From a candidate division WOR-3 bacterium (GTDB lineage Bacteria; Hydrothermota; Tepidihabitantia; SM23-42; JAOAFX01), in contig JBDRVV010000004.1 of assembly GCA_039802005.1 (NCBI GenBank), positions 31,227 through 95,226 on the forward strand: a stretch of DNA of 64,000 bases, in the 5' to 3' direction. Below the pieces are notes generated by a model that was given only the letters and a program-made list of their open reading frames with translations, was not told where the DNA came from and did no database searches. The position numbers and the translations under genes are program-made. This document shows, in pieces, positions 1,504 through 30,585 of this stretch; the first letter of the stretch is position 1, and each line of letters opens with the position of its first letter.

Positions 1504-2751
1504 TTATAAACCGTACATTGCGACTATTTCGTCTTTCTTCTTTCCGAGAATTTTGTATTTTTCTCCGACCTTTTTAAATGCCTCAATTGCCTTATCAAGA
1601 TGTTCTTTTTCATGGACTGCAGAAATCTGAACCCTTATCCTTGCCTGTCCCTGGGGAACAACCGGGAAGAAAAATCCAACAACATATATACCTTCATCGT
1701 AAAGGTCTCTTGCCATATCCTGCGCAAGTTTTGCATTGTAGAGCATCACCGGTACTATTGGATGGACTCCTTCTTTAATGTCAAATCCTGCCTCTTTCAT
1801 TTTCTGCCTGAAATATTTTGTGTTCTCTTCAAGTTTATCTCTCAATGTGGTTGTGCTGCCAATGATATCCATCACTTTATTTGCCGCAGCAACTACAACC
1901 GGTGGAATTGTATTGGAAAATAAATAAGGACGGGCACGCTGTCTGCACATTTCAACTATCTCTTTGCGTCCACTCACACAACCACCACTTGCACCACCCA
2001 TTGCCTTTCCCAGTGTCGTGGTTATTATATCAATCTTCCCTACAACACCACAGTGCTCATGCGTTCCTCTACCATTCTTACCAAGAAAACCAGTGGCATG
2101 TGAATCGTCCACCATTACCATTGCATCATATTTTTCAGCAAGCTCGCAAATTTTATCAAGTGGTGCAATATCGCCGTCCATAGAAAATACACCATCGGTG
2201 ATAATCATACGGAACCGACAATTTTGTGTTTCCTGAAGTTTTTCTTCAAGATGTGCCATATTCAAATGTTTGTAGTTATATAATTGGGCCTTACAGAGTT
2301 TCATGCCATCAACGATTGAAGCATGAACAAGACGGTCTGCAATCATTGCATCTTCTTTATCAAGAACAACATCAAAAACACCAGCATTGGCATCCATACA
2401 GGATGGGAATAAAACCGTATCTTCAGTTCCTAAAAATTCTGTAAGTTTTTTCTCCAGTTGTCGGTGTATATCCTGGGTTCCGCAAATAAATCGCACCGAA
2501 GACATGCCATAACCACGATTTTCAAGCCCTTCGTGCGCTGCCTTTATAACTTCAGGATGGCTTGAAAGACCAAGATAATTATTCGCGCAGAAATTTAAGA
2601 CTTCCTTGGGTGGTGAACCAGTAGGATATTCAACTTTAATTACTGCCGACTGTGGAGATGCGATATACCTTTCTTCCTTAAATAAACCCTTTTCCCTTAT
2701 TCCCTTCAGTTCATTCGCAAAAAATTCTCTTACTTTATCGCTGAAGGCCAT
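1504..2751 (-). CDS. kbl: Glycine C-acetyltransferase / 2-amino-3-ketobutyrate CoA ligase (Kbl); PLP-dependent alpha-oxoamine synthase
   Basis: 415 aa. It matches Kbl at ortholog level, as recalled from memory: FCANNYLGL, VRFICGTQDIHRQLE, DGVFSMDGD, DDSHATGFLG and the PLP-lysine motif TLGKAMGGASGG. Confidence 0.85.
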   Translation of the reverse strand: MAFSDKVREFFANELKGIREKGLFKEERYIASPQSAVIKVEYPTGSPPKEVLNFCANNYLGLSSHPEVIKAAHEGLENRGYGMSSVRFICGTQDIHRQLEKKLTEFLGTEDTVLFPSCMDANAGVFDVVLDKEDAMIADRLVHASIVDGMKLCKAQLYNYKHLNMAHLEEKLQETQNCRFRMIITDGVFSMDGDIAPLDKICELAEKYDAMVMVDDSHATGFLGKNGRGTHEHCGVVGKIDIITTTLGKAMGGASGGCVSGRKEIVEMCRQRARPYLFSNTIPPVVVAAANKVMDIIGSTTTLRDKLEENTKYFRQKMKEAGFDIKEGVHPIVPVMLYNAKLAQDMARDLYDEGIYVVGFFFPVVPQGQARIRVQISAVHEKEHLDKAIEAFKKVGEKYKILGKKKDEIVAMYGL

Positions 2752-2764
2752 TTAATCCTCCCCA

Positions 2765-3040
2765 TTAACCATCAAGTTTTACAAATTCACCAAGGAGTTT
2801 AATAATGTTATTAACCGTATCAAATGCCTCGGTTGTCGCCTTTTCATCAGGTATCTTTATATTAAATTTTTTCTCAAGGAATGTTTTTAGCGAAACCATT
2901 GAAAAGGAATCAACAATCCCGCTTGATATAAGGGGGGTGTTTTCCGTTATCTCCTGGTCTGAATCCTCATCCAGATACTCTTTTTTCACATAATCTATTA
3001 TTAATTTTTTCAAATCTTCTGCCATTTTTTCCTCCTTCAA
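2765..3040 (-). CDS. Acyl carrier protein (stand-alone, dedicated)
   Basis: 91 aa and acidic. The phosphopantetheine-attachment serine sits in GIVDSFSMVSL. It lies 6 nt downstream of the acyl ligase and 13 nt upstream of kbl. Confidence 0.7.
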   Translation of the reverse strand: MKEEKMAEDLKKLIIDYVKKEYLDEDSDQEITENTPLISSGIVDSFSMVSLKTFLEKKFNIKIPDEKATTEAFDTVNNIIKLLGEFVKLDG

Positions 3041-3046
3041 AAATTT

Positions 3047-4747
3047 TTAATCATTCTCTAATGTTGATATATCACCTATCTCTTCACCCCATTCTTTTGC
3101 CCTTAATAATCTGCGCATTATTTTGCCACTCCTTGTTTTGGGGAGTGAATCCACAAATTCAATCTCTTGTGGCATTGCCAGGGGTGAAAGTTTCTTCCTG
3201 ATAAAGTTCATTATATCAAGTTCAAGTTCATTACTGGGTTTGTATCCGGGTTTTAATGCAACAAATGCTTTTACCACTTCCATATTGACCGGGTCGGGCT
3301 TACCCACCGCTGCTGACTCAGCAACCGCCGGATGTTCAAGTAGTGCAGATTCAATCTCAAATGGTCCGACAAGATGTCCAGCGGTATTTATTACATCATC
3401 ATCCCTTCCCACAAACCAGAAATATCCTTCATTATCAAGGTATGCACGGTCACCACATATATACCAGTTATTTTTAAATTTTTTATCATAAGTCTCTTTA
3501 TTATTCCAGTAAGCCCTCATCATTGATGGCCAGCCAGGTTTTAATGCAATCAATCCGATTGAACCCGGCGTATTTATCGGCTCGTAATTTTTGGGGTCCA
3601 CTACCGTCGCAACAATCCCGGGAAATGCCTTACCCATAGAACCCGGCTTAATCTTCATACCCGGATAATTTGATATAACAATCGCTCCGGTTTCGGTTTG
3701 CCAGTATGAATCATGGAAAGGTAAACCAAATACCTTCTCTGACCAAATGACTGCCTCTGCATTCAATGGTTCACCAACACTTATTAAATGGCGTAAAGAT
3801 TTCAAATTGTATTTCTTCACAATCTCTTCGCCCTCTTTCATTAAAAGTCTGATTGCGGTTGGTGCGGTGTACCATACCGTGACTTTATGTTTCTCAATGA
3901 ATGCATACCATTTTTCGGTGTTGAAACCAATATCATAGACAACCTGGGTGACACCATTTGACCAGGGACCGATTATGCCATAAGAAGTACCTGTTACCCA
4001 TCCGGGGTCTGCGGTACACCAGTATATATCATTCGGTTGAAGGTCCAGGACCCATTTTGCGGTAATGTATTGAGCAATGATAGAAGAATGAACATGCAAT
4101 GCGCCCTTGGGCTTTCCTGTCGTCCCGGAAGTATAATGTAATACCGAGGGGGTCTCTCTATCCGCAGGATAGATATCAAATTTATCCACACGCTGATAAT
4201 CGTCCATACTGAATGCTATTTCTCTCTCTTCAAGGGGCTTTCCTTCATTGTGCAAGACAATAATGTATTTCAATTCCGGAAGTTGTGTTTTAATCTTACG
4301 AACCTTTGACAAATGCTTACGTGTGGTTAAAATTGCGGTTGTCTTAGCATCATCAAGCCTGGTAAACAATGCCTCTTCACCAAATGCCGAAAACAACGGT
4401 TGAACAATAAATCCTGCCTTGAGTATGCCAATAAATGATATGTACAATTCTGGTATGCGATCCATAAAAATACAAACCCGTTCACCTTTTTTTATCCCCA
4501 AGGAAGTCAGGAAATGGGCAAATTTATTGCTGTTTAATCTTATATCTTCGTATGTGAAATGCCTGATTTCGCCGCTAAAACCCTGCCAGATCAATCCTAA
4601 TTTATTGCCCAAACCGAGTTCGCATATCCTATCGCTACAATAATAACCGATGTTATACATTCCGTTTTTGCCAAAATCAAGTTCCTGCTCACTTAATTTC
4701 CAATCAAAATTTTTATATCGTTCATCGTATGAACCAATATTGGACAT
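3047..4747 (-). CDS. AMP-forming acyl-CoA/acyl-ACP synthetase (ANL superfamily)
   Basis: 566 aa. It carries the P-loop-like motif YTSGTTGKPKG, the YGxTE-like motif WQTETGA and the C-terminal GDRAY...GRDDDVINTAG...PKTRSGKIMRR motifs of adenylate-forming ligases. Confidence 0.85.
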   Translation of the reverse strand: MSNIGSYDERYKNFDWKLSEQELDFGKNGMYNIGYYCSDRICELGLGNKLGLIWQGFSGEIRHFTYEDIRLNSNKFAHFLTSLGIKKGERVCIFMDRIPELYISFIGILKAGFIVQPLFSAFGEEALFTRLDDAKTTAILTTRKHLSKVRKIKTQLPELKYIIVLHNEGKPLEEREIAFSMDDYQRVDKFDIYPADRETPSVLHYTSGTTGKPKGALHVHSSIIAQYITAKWVLDLQPNDIYWCTADPGWVTGTSYGIIGPWSNGVTQVVYDIGFNTEKWYAFIEKHKVTVWYTAPTAIRLLMKEGEEIVKKYNLKSLRHLISVGEPLNAEAVIWSEKVFGLPFHDSYWQTETGAIVISNYPGMKIKPGSMGKAFPGIVATVVDPKNYEPINTPGSIGLIALKPGWPSMMRAYWNNKETYDKKFKNNWYICGDRAYLDNEGYFWFVGRDDDVINTAGHLVGPFEIESALLEHPAVAESAAVGKPDPVNMEVVKAFVALKPGYKPSNELELDIMNFIRKKLSPLAMPQEIEFVDSLPKTRSGKIMRRLLRAKEWGEEIGDISTLEND

Positions 4748-4751
4748 TTAA

Positions 4752-5102
4752 TCAACCTCCTGTTTTTTCTTCAATTATTGCAATTCCACAGGCATATTTT
4801 TTTGAATTGCCTGTTCCAATATGTATATAGTTTTTACTATCAGAAATAAATTTTTTAAGTGGCTCGGTCACATTTACTTGTTTGTTCTTCAATTCTATAT
4901 TTTTAAAAAAGAATCCAAAATATAGCCCGATGCCAAGTGCTTTCAAAATCGCTTCTTTGATGCAAAACTTTAAGCCTGCAAATATACGATTTTTTTGAAT
5001 TGATTCCAATTCGCTGGTTGTAAAAATTTGATTAAAAAAATCTTCAGAAACCTTTGAAAACCGGGTCAATTCAATCAGATCAATGCCAATACCCTTTATC
5101 AT
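4752..5102 (-). CDS. acpS: Holo-[acyl-carrier-protein] synthase (4'-phosphopantetheinyl transferase)
   Basis: 116 aa. It has GIGIDLIEL at the N-terminus and the FCIKEAILKALG core typical of AcpS. Spacing to both neighbours is 4 nt. Confidence 0.8.
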   Translation of the reverse strand: MIKGIGIDLIELTRFSKVSEDFFNQIFTTSELESIQKNRIFAGLKFCIKEAILKALGIGLYFGFFFKNIELKNKQVNVTEPLKKFISDSKNYIHIGTGNSKKYACGIAIIEEKTGG

Positions 5103-7769: not shown

Positions 7770-7940
7770 GGGTAATTTCTTTAAAGTCCCCGCGATTGCC
7801 GTGTGGGAAAAAGTCTCTGAACCCAAGGTTAAAGTGGGCGCCTGTCAACTACAGACAAGTCTGTAGCCAAACTTGGCTCCCTAACGATGGGTGTTGGCTC
7901 AAGACTTAATGCCCATCACGAGCATCGCAGGGAACGAATT
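7770..7940 (-). ncRNA. ssrS: Putative 6S RNA (SsrS)
   Basis: The 205-nt gap downstream of zapA is locally GC-rich and non-coding. On the minus strand the 5' segment ttccctgcgatgctcgtgatggg pairs with the 3' segment cccacacggcaatcgcgggga. A second inner pairing (ttaagtcttgagcc with ggttcagagacttttt) surrounds a central bubble and an apical hairpin (ctacagac-aa-gtctgtag). This matches the 6S closing stem, bubble and terminal stem architecture. The zapA-ssrS order is a widely conserved synteny. Ends are approximate. Confidence 0.5.
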
Positions 7941-8450: not shown

Positions 8451-10768
8451 TTTGTCTCCTTTGTTCTTAAAATTGCTTTGAAGTTAATAGTTACTTCATT
8501 TATTATTTTGTTTATAAATCTATCAACCTCTTCATCTGTAAGTGTTCTATCCGGTGCCTTAAAATAAAGTCGGAAACCAAGATTCTTTTTACCTTCAGGT
8601 AGATTTTTCCCCTTATAGTAGTCAAAAAGTATGACCTTTTCCAATACCGGTCCTGCAACACGAACAATAAAATTCTTTACCACCGGCACTTCTACGTTCT
8701 CATCAAAAAGGAATGCGAGGTCTCGGATATTCGCGGGGAACTTTGGAGGTGGATTATAGAATGGTTCACTAACAAGAGAGAGTATCCTGTCGATTGATAT
8801 CTCAAAATAATAAAATTCGCGCTCACAGATTTCTGAATCAATGGCACCCAAATAACCAAGTTCCCGATCAGAATGTACAATCTTGACCGACTGGTTGAAC
8901 CCTTTTATTTGATGGTGTTGAAATTCTATTTCTTTTATCCGCATTGCTTCAAAGATCGTCTCCACCACACCCTTGGCATCATAGTAATTCAGTTTCTGAT
9001 TGGTATTTTCCCAGAAATTAGGGTAGCGTTCACCACCCATTATCGCACCGAGCTTCCTTTCCTCAAATGGCTCGGCATTTAAAAGCACATTACCAACCTC
9101 AAAGAGTTTAAGTGAATAATTACCCTTTGAAAGATTGTAATGGACTGTATCAAGAAGACCCAGAAATAGAGTGGGTCTTAATGCATTGAACCGTTCATTC
9201 AACGGGTTCTTTAATTTCACAAACCCACTGTATCCAAGATTTTCAAGTCTTTCGCTGGATACAAGTGAGAGATTATAGGTTTCACTGAAACCCAGCCCTA
9301 TCATATAGGACTTCAGAAATTTTATAAAATTTCTACCCTTATCATATATTTTTGTAACTCCCCAACGTGCTGGTGGGACATCAGGTATATTCATATAACC
9401 ATAGATTCTTGCTACCTCTTCATAGATATCTTCTTCAATCTGGAGGTCATATCTATAATGGGGAATCTTTGCCCTCAACTGATTTTTGCCCGATACCTTT
9501 ATCTCACATTTATCAAGAAGGTTTTTTACCTCCTCGGATTTAAGATTTAAAGAAAGTATTGTATTAAGTCTACCAAGAGAAAATGAAACAATCTTTTGTC
9601 CTGCCTTCTTTCCTACGCTTACAAAATTTGTCTCTTTTGCCCCAGCAGAACTTTTGAACCCTTCACCGGTTATTCTTGAGACTTCATCAACCATTGATAA
9701 ATCCGCACCCCTTTCAAATCTGATTGAAGCTTCAGTCTGTATTCCAAGTTTTCTTCTTGTATGCGCTATTCTTCTCGGATTGAAATATGCACTCTCAAGC
9801 AAAATCCGTTTGGTTGCATTTGTAATTTGGGAAGACCTCGCCCCGATTATTCCAGCAAGGGCAATCGGTCCATTTTTATCAGCAATAACAAGGTCATTTT
9901 CATCAAGTTTAAAAATCGTCCCTTCAAGGGTCACAAATTGTTCATTTTTTTGTGCCTTCCTAATTATCACCGGCAATTTAAGCAAATCAAGATCAAAAGG
10001 ATGGAGTGGCTGACCATATAACAACATATTGATGTTCGTGATATCAACCACATTATTTATCGCATTCATACCCATACAATAAAGGCGCCATTTAATTGAG
10101 AATGGTGAATCTGAAACACGAACATCCTCAAAAATCCTTGCTGTATACCTTGGGCAACCATCAGTGTCAAGTATCTTTATCAGCGAATGGTCAGTATGGT
10201 TTATTTGCTCAAGATTTTTGTCTTTGAAACTAAATTTTATCCCGAGACCAATACTGAATTCCCTTGCCAGTCCAATCACCGATAAAAGGTCAGGACGATT
10301 TGTGCCCACCTTTATATCAAGCACAAGGTCATCAAAATATTCACTGAAATGTGCCCCTTCCTTCCCCTTATCCAAAACAATAACCCCTGTTGATTTTTCA
10401 GCGATACCAAGTTCTTCCTCACTGACCAGCATCCCATTTGATTTTACGCCATCAAAATCTCTTTCACCAACGACCTGGTCTTTGAACTTCTTTCCTGCCG
10501 CCACAACAAAAATGTAGTCATTTAATCTAACATTCGTTGCGGAAGTGACTATTTGCTGATGGGTTGTTGTTTTTATATCAAGAATATTCAAATTTTTAAG
10601 GGTGGGGTGGGGTATAATCTTCAAGATTTTGCCTATGACAATATCACCGGGACACAAATTCTGTTGTTCGCTTATTTCCAAACCAAGATTATTCGCCACT
10701 TTATTTAGCGATTTCAATTCTAATTTTGTATTGAGAATTTCCTCAAGCCATTTAACTGACACTAACAT
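8447..10768 (-). CDS. pheT: Phenylalanine--tRNA ligase beta subunit
   Basis: 773 aa, immediately downstream of pheS. It shows the tRNA-binding, B3/B4, B5 and FDX-ACB domain pattern. Confidence 0.9.
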   Translation of the reverse strand: MLVSVKWLEEILNTKLELKSLNKVANNLGLEISEQQNLCPGDIVIGKILKIIPHPTLKNLNILDIKTTTHQQIVTSATNVRLNDYIFVVAAGKKFKDQVVGERDFDGVKSNGMLVSEEELGIAEKSTGVIVLDKGKEGAHFSEYFDDLVLDIKVGTNRPDLLSVIGLAREFSIGLGIKFSFKDKNLEQINHTDHSLIKILDTDGCPRYTARIFEDVRVSDSPFSIKWRLYCMGMNAINNVVDITNINMLLYGQPLHPFDLDLLKLPVIIRKAQKNEQFVTLEGTIFKLDENDLVIADKNGPIALAGIIGARSSQITNATKRILLESAYFNPRRIAHTRRKLGIQTEASIRFERGADLSMVDEVSRITGEGFKSSAGAKETNFVSVGKKAGQKIVSFSLGRLNTILSLNLKSEEVKNLLDKCEIKVSGKNQLRAKIPHYRYDLQIEEDIYEEVARIYGYMNIPDVPPARWGVTKIYDKGRNFIKFLKSYMIGLGFSETYNLSLVSSERLENLGYSGFVKLKNPLNERFNALRPTLFLGLLDTVHYNLSKGNYSLKLFEVGNVLLNAEPFEERKLGAIMGGERYPNFWENTNQKLNYYDAKGVVETIFEAMRIKEIEFQHHQIKGFNQSVKIVHSDRELGYLGAIDSEICEREFYYFEISIDRILSLVSEPFYNPPPKFPANIRDLAFLFDENVEVPVVKNFIVRVAGPVLEKVILFDYYKGKNLPEGKKNLGFRLYFKAPDRTLTDEEVDRFINKIINEVTINFKAILRTKETN

Positions 10769-27531: not shown

Positions 27532-28514
27532 ATATAGCAATTCTCGGATGTGGTAACTGGGGTTCGGTGTTCGGCATTATGCAGTATAAAAATGGTCATA
27601 GTGTAAAAATATGGGAATTTGATAAAAAACGTGCTGAGAAGGTTCAGAAAACAAGAGATAACAGTCCATTTCTTTTAAAATATAGAATCCCTGATTCAAT
27701 CTTGATTGATTGGCGTTTGGAAAATATAGTAAAAAATTGTGACCTAATAGTATTTGCAGTACCCTGCCAGACATTGAGAAATGTTTTAATCGAAATGGAA
27801 AAAATAAAAATAAAAACAAAAGAATTTTTGAGTTTAATAAAAGGGATTGATATAAAAACCCTCCAGTTACCATCAGGAATTATCAAAAACAGATTTCCTG
27901 AAAGTAAATGTTTTGTGTTATCAGGTCCCTCAATTGCAAATGAGATAATAAGAAATGAACCGACCGCTGTCGTCCTTGCCAGTTATGATTTAGATAGGGC
28001 AAAAAAATTACAACCCGAGATTGCTGCGGAAAATTTTAGAATTTACATATCTGACGATGTAATCGGAGTTGAACTTGGTGGTGCGGTTAAGAATGTACTG
28101 GCGCTCGCCTGCGGAATAAGTGATGGATTAGGGTTTGGTTCTAATGCCAAAGGTGCATTAATATCACGGGGTATCTTAGAAATTCAAAGGCTTGGCTCAA
28201 AAATGGGCGCAAATCCTAAAACATTTTATGGGTTATCAGGTCTTGGCGATTTGATAACCACATCTTTCAGTGAAGAATCGAGAAATCATTTATTTGGCAA
28301 GATGCTCGGCAGGGGTAAATCTGTAAAAGAAATAAAAAAAGATTTTGTAATGGTTGCCGAAGGGGTACCGACTGCAAGGGCGGTAATGGAACTTGCAAAA
28401 AAATATAATGTTGAAATGCCAATATCAAAGGTTGTTTATGAAATCATTTACAAAAGAAAATCCCCTTTACAGGGTTTAAAGAGTTTAATGTTAAGACCAT
28501 TAAAAAATGAATAG
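27516..28514 (+). CDS. gpsA: NAD(P)H-dependent glycerol-3-phosphate dehydrogenase
   Basis: 332 aa with an N-terminal GxGxWG Rossmann fold (ILGCGNWGS) and a GpsA-type C-terminal domain. It sits in the der-plsY-gpsA synteny. Confidence 0.9.
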   Translation: MEEEMNIAILGCGNWGSVFGIMQYKNGHSVKIWEFDKKRAEKVQKTRDNSPFLLKYRIPDSILIDWRLENIVKNCDLIVFAVPCQTLRNVLIEMEKIKIKTKEFLSLIKGIDIKTLQLPSGIIKNRFPESKCFVLSGPSIANEIIRNEPTAVVLASYDLDRAKKLQPEIAAENFRIYISDDVIGVELGGAVKNVLALACGISDGLGFGSNAKGALISRGILEIQRLGSKMGANPKTFYGLSGLGDLITTSFSEESRNHLFGKMLGRGKSVKEIKKDFVMVAEGVPTARAVMELAKKYNVEMPISKVVYEIIYKRKSPLQGLKSLMLRPLKNE

Positions 28515-28525
28515 AGGAGGTAAGG

Positions 28526-28858
28526 ATGGCTGAGAAAGAGTTTTATTCTATAAAAGAAGTAGCAAAAATGCTTGAAATTCCTGCTTATGTATTGAGATAC
28601 TGGGAAAAAGAATTTCCTATGCTTAGACCACACAGAAATAGACTGGGCAGGAGATTTTATTCTCAGAAAGATATAGAAATAGCACGTATGATAAAAGTAA
28701 TTTTGTATGAACAGGGATTTACAATAGCGGGTGCGCGAAAAAAGTTGGCATCTATAACCCAAGGTCCGGAACAATTAACATTGCCGTTAAGTGATGCAGT
28801 AAAGATTATAAAAGAAGTGAAAGAGGAGTTAAAAGAAATCCGCTCTCTGTTAGATTAA
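28526..28858 (+). CDS. MerR-family transcriptional regulator
   Basis: 110 aa with an N-terminal HTH (YSIKEVAKMLEIPAYVLRYWEKEF). Confidence 0.7.
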   Translation: MAEKEFYSIKEVAKMLEIPAYVLRYWEKEFPMLRPHRNRLGRRFYSQKDIEIARMIKVILYEQGFTIAGARKKLASITQGPEQLTLPLSDAVKIIKEVKEELKEIRSLLD

Positions 28859-28883
28859 AAATCTTTAAATTTTAGAATCCTGA

Positions 28884-28911
28884 TTGACAAGGTTTTTATG
28901 TTGAATATAAT
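28884..28911 (+). promoter_or_regulatory. Consensus sigma-70 promoter (TTGACA-N16-TATAAT) driving the tRNA-like element and tRNA-Leu
   Basis: TTGACA at 28884-28889 and TATAAT at 28906-28911. The predicted transcription start is about 4 nt before the tRNA-like 5' end at 28922. Confidence 0.6.
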
Positions 28912-28921
28912 AATTATGTTT

Positions 28922-29037
28922 GCCGGGATGATGGAATTGGTAGACGTAGCGGACTTTTGAGAATTCCGCTTCCGTTTAGCGGAATTCGAAATCCCGCATG
29001 CTGTTTGCGGGAAAAATCCTATCGCCGTGAGGCGATA
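28922..29037 (+). pseudogene. Degenerate tRNA-Leu-like element. Its first 35 nt are identical to the downstream tRNA-Leu 5' half. Three stable hairpins follow and there is no acceptor 3' strand
   Basis: 28922-28956 equals 29070-29104 exactly, covering the acceptor 5' strand, D-arm and anticodon stem 5' side. Downstream are hairpins of 10 bp (28961-28987), 6 bp (28993-29011) and 7 bp (29020-29037). A variable-arm-like and a TTCGAAA T-loop-like segment are recognisable. No 3' acceptor complement (TCCCGGC) is present. Confidence 0.35.
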
Positions 29038-29069
29038 AAAAGATTTTAGTATTGATTTATATTATCGTT

Positions 29070-29155
29070 GCCGGGATGATGGAATTGGTAGACGTAGCGG
29101 ACTTAAAATCCGCTTCCCCGCAAGGGGAGTGCCGGTTCAAGTCCGGCTCCCGGCA
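29070..29155 (+). tRNA. tRNA-Leu (anticodon UAA), type II with long variable arm
   Basis: A canonical cloverleaf: 7-bp acceptor stem GCCGGGA/TCCCGGC, D-loop AATTGGTAGA, anticodon loop CTTAAAA, variable arm CCCCGCAAGGGGAG and T-arm GCCGGTTCAAGTCCGGC. CCA is not encoded. Confidence 0.85.
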
Positions 29156-29232
29156 TTGTCGTAGTATAAATGCCAACCCCGCCACTTTGTGCGTCGGATT
29201 AAACTTTGGATTTTGACATTTGAAATTTTGAA

Positions 29233-30585
29233 TTACAATAGACCTTTCTGCCTATATCTTGCAATTCTATTCAGGAGTGTCTTATATGATACCCTCAGTC
29301 TCCTTGCCGTCTCTGCTTTATTCCACTCTGTTTGCTCAAGAGTCTTTTTGATAAGTTCTGCCTCAGCCATTTCTCTGCCATAATTTGCTGCGGTCTTTAA
29401 ATCCATATTTCCCACTAAAACTTCCGCTCTCTTTTTTGTCTGTAATGGCAACAGGATGTGTTCAGAATTTATAGTTTCTCCAGCCAGTATATTTGCCCGC
29501 TCAATGGTATTCTCCAGTTCACGCACATTTCCGGGCCAATCATAATTAATTAATTTTTGAAGGGCAGATTCCGAAATCTTCTTATTTGATTTTATTTTTT
29601 TTAAAAAATGTTCAACAAGCAAAGGAATGTCTTCTTTTCTGTCTCTCAATGGTGGAATTATTATTGGGAAAACACTTAATCTGTAATAAAGGTCTTCCCG
29701 AAATCTTCTTTCATTAACGAGGGTATGTAAATCCTTATTGCTTGCCGCAATTATGCGGACATCAACTTTTATTGAAGCAGTTCCACCCAGACGTTCAAAT
29801 GTTTTTTCCTGAATGACCCTCAATATTTTTGCCTGCAGATCAATACCCAGATCTCCAATCTCATCAAGAAATATTGTGCCTTTATGAGCAAGTTCAAATT
29901 TTCCAATCTTCCGTGCCACCGCACCGGTAAACGCGCCTTTTTCTGAGCCGAATAATTCATTTTCCAACAATTCACTTGGTATCGCTGCACAATTTATGGT
30001 TACAAACGGAGCCTCCTTTCGGGGCGATAGACTATGACAGGCCCTTGCAAATAGTTCTTTTCCAGTCCCTGATTCACCAAGAAAAAGCACAGTTGCTTCA
30101 GTTGGTGCAACTTTTTTGAGTAACTCAATTGATTTTTTTATCACTTCACTCACACCTACAATTTCAGGGAAACCATGGATATTTTGGACCATCTCTTTGA
30201 GCAGAATGTTTTCATATTGGGCTCTTTGCTCCCCAATGATCTTTTTGACTAAAATAATAAGTTGCTCTGTATCAAATGGTTTGGTAAGAAAATCACAGGC
30301 ACCCATTTTCATTGCTTCAACCGCTCTCTCCACTGTACCAAATGCCGTCATTATAATAAATTTTGCCTCTGAATCAATGTTTTTCAATTCACGGAGGACA
30401 TCAATACCATCAATGTCGGGAAGACGTAAATCCAACAATACAAGATTTATCTTTTCTCTCTTAAAAATCTGAATAGCCTCACGCCCATTTCGGGCAATTA
30501 AGGTTGAGAAACCTGCATCATCAAGTGCCACCTTCAATATCTCAGCAAAACTTGTTTTATCCTCAACGATTAGTATATCTGCCAT
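29233..30585 (-). CDS. Sigma-54-dependent response regulator (NtrC family: REC, AAA+ and Fis-type HTH domains)
   Basis: 450 aa with receiver aspartate context LVLLDLRLPD, Walker A GESGTGKE, the GAFTGA motif as written in the sequence, and a C-terminal HTH. Confidence 0.9.
   Translation of the reverse strand: MADILIVEDKTSFAEILKVALDDAGFSTLIARNGREAIQIFKREKINLVLLDLRLPDIDGIDVLRELKNIDSEAKFIIMTAFGTVERAVEAMKMGACDFLTKPFDTEQLIILVKKIIGEQRAQYENILLKEMVQNIHGFPEIVGVSEVIKKSIELLKKVAPTEATVLFLGESGTGKELFARACHSLSPRKEAPFVTINCAAIPSELLENELFGSEKGAFTGAVARKIGKFELAHKGTIFLDEIGDLGIDLQAKILRVIQEKTFERLGGTASIKVDVRIIAASNKDLHTLVNERRFREDLYYRLSVFPIIIPPLRDRKEDIPLLVEHFLKKIKSNKKISESALQKLINYDWPGNVRELENTIERANILAGETINSEHILLPLQTKKRAEVLVGNMDLKTAANYGREMAEAELIKKTLEQTEWNKAETARRLRVSYKTLLNRIARYRQKGLL

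Follow-up and report, generated by a model that had tools for sequence, protein, structure and literature searches.

A displaced 5′ part of tRNA-Leu(UAA) behind the gene's native promoter in a WOR-3 bacterium: most probably a decayed fragment at an island attachment site

Directly upstream of the intact tRNA-Leu(UAA) gene of a candidate division WOR-3 bacterium lies a second, truncated copy of the same gene, which breaks off shortly after the anticodon stem and is followed by three hairpins. We analyzed this element in a stretch of 64,000 nucleotides (contig JBDRVV010000004.1, positions 31,227–95,226; hereinafter the window, with its own coordinates used throughout) together with the corresponding loci of related genomes. 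The truncated copy is non-functional: it represents the 5′ part of tRNA-Leu(UAA), displaced yet still behind the native promoter of the gene, and it is most probably a decayed, displaced tRNA-gene fragment at the attachment site of an integrative island in the uncommon 5′-side orientation.

Layout of the locus and the truncated copy

The features of the locus, in order along the window, are as follows:

28526–28858: MerR-family gene (Pfam MerR_1).
28884–28911, + strand: sigma-70-type native promoter of tRNA-Leu(UAA), with TTGACA at 28884–28889, a 16-nt spacer and TATAAT at 28906–28911 (12/12 matches).
28913–28956, + strand: pseudo-copy of the tRNA-Leu 5′ part, comprising 9 nt of 5′ flank and tRNA positions 1–35 (28922–28956), from the repeat search.
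28957–28973, + strand: altered anticodon loop, in which TTGAGAAT replaces AAAA, then TCCGCTTCC, from the repeat search and alignment.
28961–28987, + strand: hairpin 1, GAATTCCGCT / AGCGGAATTC, 10 bp with a 7-nt loop, a 100% complementary inverted pair.
28985–28996, + strand: T-loop-like TTCGAAATCCCG, including ATCCCG at 28991–28996, from sequence comparison.
28992–29012, + strand: hairpin 2, UCCCGCA / UGCGGGA, 7 bp with a 7-nt loop, from fold prediction.
29012–29037: A-tract AAAAATCC and hairpin 3 (TATCGCC GTGA GGCGATA with a GNRA-type loop; stem-loop at 29020–29037), from fold prediction and the site scan.
29038–29069, + strand: leader 2, 32 nt directly 5′ of the intact tRNA, without a called promoter-like site.
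29070–29155, + strand: intact tRNA-Leu(UAA), class II with a long variable arm, CCA not encoded (ARAGORN; Rfam RF00005, 54.3 bits).
29233–30585, − strand: convergent sigma-54 regulator gene.

A scan for promoter-like and terminator-like sites across 28400–29400 returned TTGACA-N16-TATAAT at 28884–28911 as its sole perfect promoter match, in agreement with an earlier reading of this DNA made from its letters and open reading frames alone (hereinafter the sequence-only reading). The same scan called no promoter-like site in front of the real tRNA, which that reading had described as lacking a good −35, and nothing resembling a + strand terminator over the stretch from the promoter to the tRNA gene. 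As the only promoter-like site lies upstream and no such terminator intervenes, the tRNA is most simply transcribed through the half-copy, from a start that would fall at about 28918; the co-transcribed leader suggested earlier thus follows from the anatomy. The further suggestion that part of the −10 region is duplicated before the real tRNA is true only weakly, since the repeat starts 2 nt downstream of the −10 hexamer, and any similarity beyond this in the upstream direction requires gaps. Leader 2 is poorly conserved except for an AAGAT(G) motif and its last 7–9 nt, which recur before the truncated copy. The idea of a leader peptide or attenuation meets only overlapping, mechanically derived open reading frames of 20–54 amino acids, none of them credible.

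The two copies form a direct repeat of 44 nt (28913–28956 versus 29061–29104; identity 42/44), within which runs an exact repeat of 37 nt (28920–28956 = 29068–29104). Of this run, 35 nt are tRNA positions 1–35, the identity first noticed by the sequence-only reading (hereinafter the pseudo-half), and an exact repeat of 37 nt cannot be a chance product in 64 kb. The pseudo-copy holds the acceptor 5′ strand, the D arm, the anticodon stem 5′ strand and CTT. The separation between the repeat copies amounts to 112 nt of non-coding DNA, and what lies between the pseudo-copy and the intact gene is about 95 nt of non-tRNA sequence containing the three hairpins, together with the 32 nt of leader 2.

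Following CTT, the half-copy reads TTGAGAAT, which makes an anticodon loop of 11 nt as compared to the 7 nt of CTT-AAAA in the real tRNA; the enlarged loop, CTTTTGAGAAT, lies between GCGGA and TCCGC. Past it, AATTCCGCTTCC (28962–28973) matches AAATCCGCTTCC of the tRNA at 11 of 12 positions, and on this alignment the copy extends through the anticodon stem 3′ strand to the start of the variable arm. The divergence that was said to begin at the anticodon loop is therefore real for the loop itself and does not hold for the stem strand beyond it, where the copy resumes. Similarity to the rest of the tRNA past that point is not significant (646 of 1000 shuffles score equally; p = 0.65). Neither ARAGORN nor Rfam RF00005 calls a tRNA at 28913–29040, even at E ≤ 10, and with no tRNA-finder call and no 7-nt anticodon loop the upstream copy is not a functional tRNA; the intact downstream gene alone is called in the region. 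A search of 28800–29300 with the families of Rfam 15 at E ≤ 10 yielded none besides tRNA, the best others reaching 10–19 bits against thresholds of 37–117.

The absence of a 3′ acceptor strand, likewise remarked on before, is essentially borne out: just a short ATCCCG (28991–28996) is complementary to CGGGAT of the pseudo-half (tRNA positions 3–8). It is invariant across all four of the long forms of the locus described below, and an acceptor-like ATCCCG/CGGGAT pairing is possible as read from the letters, its invariant columns giving no covariation. The similarity of the T-loop-like segment to the real T arm in the window is not significant.

The locus in related genomes and integrase islands at the same tRNA

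Orthologous loci, gathered via the MerR protein, the sigma-54 regulator protein and the tRNA 5′ half, show four states: without insert, with hairpin 3 only, in a long form, or occupied by an island. The two proteins also assign the window to candidate division WOR-3. No insert is present in L001, L002 and L098–L100, which have a near-identical promoter 11–14 nt before a single tRNA; accordingly, we take the promoter to be native to the tRNA. L101 has a single tRNA too, behind a different promoter. The order promoter, hairpin 3, leader 2 and tRNA is found in L009, L083 and L089, while L087 retains just the 3′ half of hairpin 3, and in L104 that 3′ half is visible beside a 100-N gap, where the long form would lie. 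The long form itself is seen in L116/L117, whose regulator is 85% identical to that of the window and which share the same MerR–GpsA synteny: a 35-nt pseudo-half breaking at the same base as in the window is followed by hairpins 1, 2 and 3 and leader 2. L080 has a 30-nt pseudo-half and three hairpins; its regulator C-terminus is about 54–59% identical to that of the window and closest to a group that is 65–67% identical at full length. L111 combines a 37-nt pseudo-half with hairpins 2 and 3, lacks hairpin 1 and has an extra 20-nt fragment further upstream. The spacing between the copies is 148 nt in the window, 147 nt in L116/L117 and 157 nt in L080.

The promoter is conserved across these states, near-same versions driving the long form in L116 and the hairpin-3 form in L009. 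The half-copy state is common to lineages whose neighboring regulators are about 59–85% identical, and the closest relatives (regulator 86–92% identical), among them L001 and L002 at 92% and 89%, are without the module or have hairpin 3 only. L009 differs from L116 by a single deletion between two TAT microhomologies, which indicates that the hairpin-3-only form derives from the long form. The enlarged loop, being common to the window, L116 (CTTTCGGAGCA) and L080, is an old change. Two intact tRNA-Leu(UAA) genes at the locus, which the sequence-only reading had named as the sign of a simple recent pseudogenization, were never found by ARAGORN in about 35 WOR-3 loci; L116/L117 were not among these, and their upstream copy is the same truncated half.

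In each genome the pseudo-half equals the 5′ half of the resident tRNA (35/35 in the window and L116, 30/30 in L080 and 37/37 in L111), and that of L111 follows its resident variant (GGCGGAATCTGGTAGACGC), unlike the variant of the others. The pseudo-half thus shows concerted evolution with the resident tRNA, of which gene conversion from the adjacent gene would be the simplest cause.

The break points bear on a relationship to the tRNA-Leu(UAA) group I intron of cyanobacteria and plastids, or to a split or permuted tRNA. The tRNA is the same, and in the window and L116 identity ends after CTT, that is at U34, the intron site, which is a positional coincidence only. In L080 and L111 the identity breaks at other points, after position 30 and after A35, respectively; no Rfam intron hit or intron core is found at E ≤ 10, the 148-nt insert contains a second copy of the 5′ exon, and the downstream gene at 29070–29155 is intact and uninterrupted. 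On the Rfam negative and the differing break points we reject this origin, which is scarcely credible.

The fragments of L111 (BBDRAFT_10311553, reverse complement of 3851–4800) form an array with unrelated spacers, which a TTGACA-N17-TATAAT promoter precedes and the intact gene follows: fragment A is 20 nt long with mismatches and fragment B is the identical 37 nt. The array looks like the trace of serial integrations, and the mismatched 20-nt fragment looks shorter than the length needed for conversion.

Several assemblies break at or near the locus. In L104 (CP070686.1) the 100-N gap (4540–4639) follows an EF-Tu gene directly and lies just upstream of the hairpin 3 half. The contig of L102 stops 1 nt short of the tRNA, that of L080 begins 6 nt ahead of the pseudo-half and that of L106 breaks off within the tRNA. 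All of this is consistent with repeats at the locus. A 100-N run in L001, with one and the same 12-mer at either edge, is a scaffold gap; the run in L104 was treated likewise. Synteny also varies: in L098–L100 (4237–4324) tRNA-Leu(UAA) has a divergent tRNA-Leu(CAA) upstream, and in place of the MerR–GpsA synteny stands a glycoside hydrolase 57 gene. A 23S rRNA intervening-sequence protein gene (PF05635) stands between tRNA and regulator in L080 (496–855), L102 (3980–4345), L104 (3980–4336) and L107 (7418–7804), being found in the L080-containing clade and absent from that of the window. Loci of the regulator P0063 (L112–L115) have no tRNA beside the regulator and are uninformative.

The island-occupied state is found in L103, L107 and L109/L110, where HTH_36, HTH_17 and tyrosine integrase genes are followed, after about 28 nt, by an intact tRNA-Leu(UAA), with the integrase on the strand of the tRNA. 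Downstream of these tRNAs lie the regulator and thiC as in the window, and in L107 also the above-mentioned intervening-sequence protein gene and a chemoreceptor-like (MCP) gene. The complete island of L110 is bounded by a perfect 49-nt direct repeat (66–114 and 10287–10335, the copies 10,221 nt apart), which consists of tRNA positions 1–48 and one upstream base and ends ..TCCGCTTC, within 1 nt of where the tRNA similarity of the window copy stops. L109, from a sister sample, has the native promoter (TTGACA-N17-TATAAT) upstream of the displaced fragment, and its comparison with L110 (400–420 versus 66–114) reveals a 33-nt deletion inside that fragment, so that decay is visible within a population. 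The tRNA of L103 shares its 3′ half and trailer hairpin with L080 and differs in the D arm at five places (four substitutions and one inserted base); such a chimera is as expected had the island supplied the 5′ part. With intact islands using this tRNA from the 5′ side, the ranking of an integration remnant as the less likely origin, which the sequence-only reading had based on the usual duplication of tRNA 3′ ends, is probably wrong.

Homologues of the WOR-3 integrase number 2,288 at E ≤ 1e-40. Its relatives on viral contigs are all ≤39% identical, the distant ones about 30%, and in the distant ones the tRNA comes right after the integrase gene on the opposite strand, which is the classical 3′-side arrangement and marks the WOR-3 orientation as the unusual one. 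Given their distance and arrangement, we set the viral relatives aside as a source of the element and use them as a contrast only. On L137, L138, L140, L142, L146, L152 and other viral contigs, the integrase relatives lie beside tRNA-Arg(UCU), tRNA-Thr or tRNA-His at provirus ends. Upstream-integrating islands have been described at Klebsiella arg2 (bioRxiv 10.1101/2020.11.02.365908), and the Islander pipeline explicitly allows a ‘5′ fragment upstream’ configuration (PMC4383910). Within the L110 island, a 424-aa gene with no Pfam hit contains seven tandem 126-nt units that are 66–79% identical (2308–3363), and a 50-nt motif rich in TGGCACA with a G-rich hairpin recurs in the left half of the island (225–274, 1821–1870 and 3909–3958), which might be regulatory or an integrase arm site.

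Structure and conservation of the hairpins

The 10-bp hairpin and the two further hairpins of the sequence-only reading are all recovered, at 28961–28987, 28992–29012 and 29020–29037. The window leader folds at −52.9 kcal/mol, better than its shuffles (z = −3.9), and that of L080 no better than its shuffles (z = −0.3). The stem of hairpin 1 uses the TCCGC of the former anticodon stem, and three of its eight shared pairs covary between the window, L116 and L080 (AATTCCGC/GCGGAATT, GCATCCGC/GCGGATGC and GGTTCCGC/GCGGAACC). A hairpin at the position of hairpin 2 is retained in L116, L080 and L111, with two pairs altered on both sides. Across the four long forms, standard pairs fill 92% of the pair cells as compared to 34–44% with slid partners, and double-sided changes affect 5 of the 21 pairs (three in hairpin 1 and two in hairpin 2; four sequences), a count that 11 of 500 shuffles attain and that stays at or below two in the slid controls.

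The A-tract with hairpin 3 is the most conserved block, and the core of hairpin 3 shows no variation across the long forms. The block GCGGGAAAAATCCTATCGCCGnGAGGCGATAAA is identical at 32 of 33 positions in L116 and at 25 of 28 in L080, and the pseudo-half is identical at 35 of 35 positions between the window and L116, although 4-fold degenerate codon sites agree at only 0.44–0.53 in that comparison. The conservation of hairpin 3 exceeds what neutrality would allow; some constraint acts on the module, and gene conversion cannot explain the hairpins. As one candidate cause, templated mutation may preserve short palindromes at the DNA level; such mutation can also produce covariation in them.

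On the − strand, hairpin 3 (29040–29017) is an intrinsic-terminator-like hairpin followed by a GGATTTTT tail, with the G+C-rich stem and U-tract that terminators have in sequence, termination itself being predicted only. It is the sole terminator-like site in the scanned region and lies beyond the antisense tRNA, the convergent sigma-54 regulator gene having its stop codon about 195 nt earlier. Its − strand U-tract tail is retained in L116 and L080 and is shorter in L111; on the + strand, a U-tract follows none of hairpins 1–3. Speculatively, hairpin 3 might stop antisense transcripts from the convergent regulator operon. An equally speculative role for hairpins 1 and 2 would be to sequester tRNA-like strands (TCCGC in hairpin 1 and ATCCCG in hairpin 2) and so spare the folding of the real tRNA. 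In the predicted minimum free energy fold of the whole precursor (28918–29160; z = −5.2), the 5′ acceptor strand of the pseudo-half pairs with the 3′ acceptor strand of the real tRNA, and on this model the two identical 5′ strands can compete for that 3′ strand.

On another reading, the pseudo-half and hairpins, whatever their origin, would now be a selected, structured leader RNA, with identity kept by selection and not by conversion alone. Such an RNA might govern how the precursor of tRNA-Leu(UAA) matures or folds, or it might serve as a mimic or decoy towards a factor recognizing the tRNA 5′ part. The conserved pairing, the near-invariance of hairpin 3 relative to neutral sites (about 50%), the tracking of the resident tRNA variant in L111, the favorable fold of the window leader and the predicted precursor fold, by which the parts can interact, all speak for it. 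However, the module is wholly or partly lost in most of the relatives sampled, L001 and L002 as the closest among them, the L080 leader has no fold preference, only four sequences carry the long form, and the covariation may be of the templated kind just mentioned. Moreover, the module matches no Rfam family, and a covariance model built from it finds no other copy in the window and 43 loci (368 kb). We consider a selected leader unlikely on this balance. Slightly less likely again is its more specific version, a cis-acting leader RNA that would mimic the 5′ part of its own tRNA and tune maturation or output of the tRNA that decodes UUA in this A+T-rich organism, for instance by pairing transiently with the 3′ half of nascent tRNA-Leu(UAA) or by binding a tRNA-recognizing factor; if true, it would account for the tracking of the resident tRNA, the covariation of hairpins 1–2 and the near-invariant hairpin 3 from the sequence comparisons above.

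Origin of the truncated copy

The explanation we favor, with moderate confidence, is that the element is an old integration scar which now forms a pre-tRNA leader of about 150 nt, its 5′ half being kept identical by gene conversion. A tyrosine-integrase island would have entered the tRNA gene from the 5′ side by recombination in or near the anticodon loop. It would have supplied its own tRNA 5′ part, so that the original one came to lie, together with the promoter, at the far end of the island. Later deletion of the island interior would have left about 110 nt, and by abolishing the crossover site, the enlarged anticodon loop common to the long forms may have made the scar permanent. The adjacent essential tRNA would then, through conversion, hold the 30–37-nt 5′ part identical, the remainder diverging or being lost in most lineages. 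Transcription would proceed from near 28918 through the pseudo-half and the three hairpins, and RNase P cleavage at 29070 would free the tRNA and a leader of about 150 nt.

Reading the element as a displaced fragment explains why the fragment and not the gene owns the native promoter, why tRNA similarity stops right after the anticodon stem near the boundary of the L110 repeat, and, through repeated integrations, why L111 has a fragment array with unrelated spacers. The configuration agrees with that of island-borne fragments: a partial tRNA copy in direct orientation stands on the correct side (5′ fragment upstream, 28913–28973, same strand), intact islands use the same tRNA in the same configuration in L103, L107 and L109/L110, and the site is unoccupied in the close relatives L001, L002 and L098–L100. 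As no integrase or island DNA lies between fragment and gene, it could belong to that class only as a decayed remnant.

Several observations weigh against an integration scar. A tblastn search with the WOR-3 integrase finds no integrase or island gene in the 64-kb window. The remnant resembles the L110 left end, the sole island end available, no better than chance (score 17; 146 of 500 shuffles equal), and leader 2 is unlike the integrase-to-tRNA spacer of L103, L107 and L109; if the remnant is a scar, its source is a different element family. The 7–9 nt of upstream flank (TATGTTT) common to both copies differ from the flank of the empty-site relatives, which requires that the identity segment was longer or that conversion reached into the flank. 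The module is common to lineages with regulators only about 59–66% identical to that of the window, and a dead scar should show neither a near-invariant hairpin 3 nor covarying hairpins 1–2. Finally, a 15-nt stretch of L080 hairpin 2 matches the tRNA T arm at 13 of 15 positions (42 of 1000 shuffles), which hints at a once complete gene copy.

This last match leads to the alternative that the whole tRNA-Leu(UAA) with a short flank was tandemly duplicated as a unit of about 150 nt, giving a two-gene operon with one promoter. A 4-nt insertion in the anticodon loop would have killed the upstream copy, its 3′ two-thirds decaying into the hairpins while conversion held the 5′ third. The near-constant copy spacing fits an 86-nt tRNA with a 60–70-nt spacer, both copies have the same 7–9 nt of upstream flank, and the invariant ATCCCG, with the T-loop-like TTCGAAA before it, resembles the acceptor 3′ strand TCCCGG. 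In L080, GAGTGCCGTATCGAG is similar to its own T arm GAGTGCCGGTTCGAG (p about 0.04), and by eye hairpin 2 with GAAAATCC resembles the trailer hairpin and GAAAT(T/A)C after the real tRNA in L080, L103, L106 and L111. Yet past CCGCTTCC there is no significant tRNA similarity in the window or in L111 (p = 0.19), and the marginal match in L080 is out of register by 22 nt. None of the relatives carries two intact copies, the spacers of the L111 array are mutually unrelated, so that the array is not a repeated unit, and duplication gives no reason for similarity stopping where the L110 island repeat ends. The partly decayed tandem duplication entertained by the sequence-only reading retains marginal support, and we regard it as possible but doubtful. 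A larger repeat unit, with hairpin 3 and leader 2 occurring again upstream of the pseudo-half, was also tried and is not significant (402 of 2000 shuffles in L116 and about 160 of 2000 in L111).

A different use of the integrases is conceivable, in which the element would be a miniature non-autonomous unit of about 150 nt, bounded by attachment sites and moved in trans by the integrases of full-size islands. The same compact architecture occurs in the window and the distant L080 and is absent from the closest relatives of the window, and 5′-side integrases are common in the clade, going by the homologues counted above. Against this, every long form has a changed anticodon loop, the presumed region of crossover, and this change should block recombination with an intact copy; moreover, 150 bp is very small for a circular double-stranded DNA intermediate. 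Within the window and the 43 loci searched, the module is found at this single site only; a 22-mer across the junction has no exact match in metagenome contigs and the hairpin 3 motif none in viral contigs. We hold such mobility to be very unlikely. In the viral contigs, the 5′-half pattern with the enlarged loop has no match either, and the tRNA 5′-half pattern is found only in ordinary phage tRNA-Leu genes inside tRNA clusters.

Among known systems, the integration scar is closest to the displaced tRNA-gene fragments at the ends of tyrosine-integrase islands and prophages (the Islander principle, PMC4383910; tRNA gene fragments in prokaryotes, PMC9897764). Like these, the window has a partial tRNA copy in direct orientation beside an intact tRNA, the 5′ fragment lying upstream, with empty sites in close relatives and integrase-bearing islands at the same tRNA in others. 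Unlike them, it has 112 nt and no integrase between fragment and gene, the fragment is the 5′ part where the 3′ part is usual, and the remnant is conserved and structured across deep lineages. As in the Klebsiella arg2 islands (D-loop sublocation; bioRxiv 10.1101/2020.11.02.365908), the WOR-3 island lies on the tRNA 5′ side, which is reportedly exceptional. The phylum, tRNA and integrase clade differ, and the WOR-3 repeat extends from position 1 across the anticodon stem, mirroring the anticodon-loop class. Tandem-duplication tRNA pseudogenes share with the window head-to-tail copies behind one promoter, one of them dead; however, the window copy has no detectable 3′ half, a perfect 5′ third stands beside a scrambled remainder, and no relative has two live copies. 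Cis-mobilizable elements and decayed islands of Streptococcus are bounded by attachment sites and lack recombination genes. The window resembles them in the two attachment-site-like repeats around a short non-coding remnant and differs in that the remnant is far smaller (about 150 nt), the presumed crossover site is mutated and mobility is only hypothetical. The element most probably belongs to a known class, that of displaced tRNA fragments, a placement supported by its configuration and by the empty and occupied sites in relatives. Overall, a rather ordinary relic is the most likely answer, albeit one in which some conserved features are curious.

For annotation, the locus offers a clean case of a tRNA-gene fragment that is not to be called a tRNA, and it explains the assembly breaks seen here in several metagenome bins. 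A clade of tyrosine-integrase islands appears to reside in WOR-3 bacteria and to target tRNA-Leu(UAA) from its 5′ side, a rare orientation. Insertion on this side forces the regenerated tRNA to be transcribed from within the island or, post-decay, through the scar from the original promoter. In evolutionary terms, a 30–37-nt fragment evolves in concert with the neighboring gene amid repeated independent deletions. Should the conserved hairpins prove functional, they would represent a tRNA-derived type of leader element that has so far gone undescribed.

Elsewhere in the window, a 6S RNA (SsrS) gene lies at 7783–7936 on the − strand (Rfam RF00013, 73 bits against a threshold of 46).

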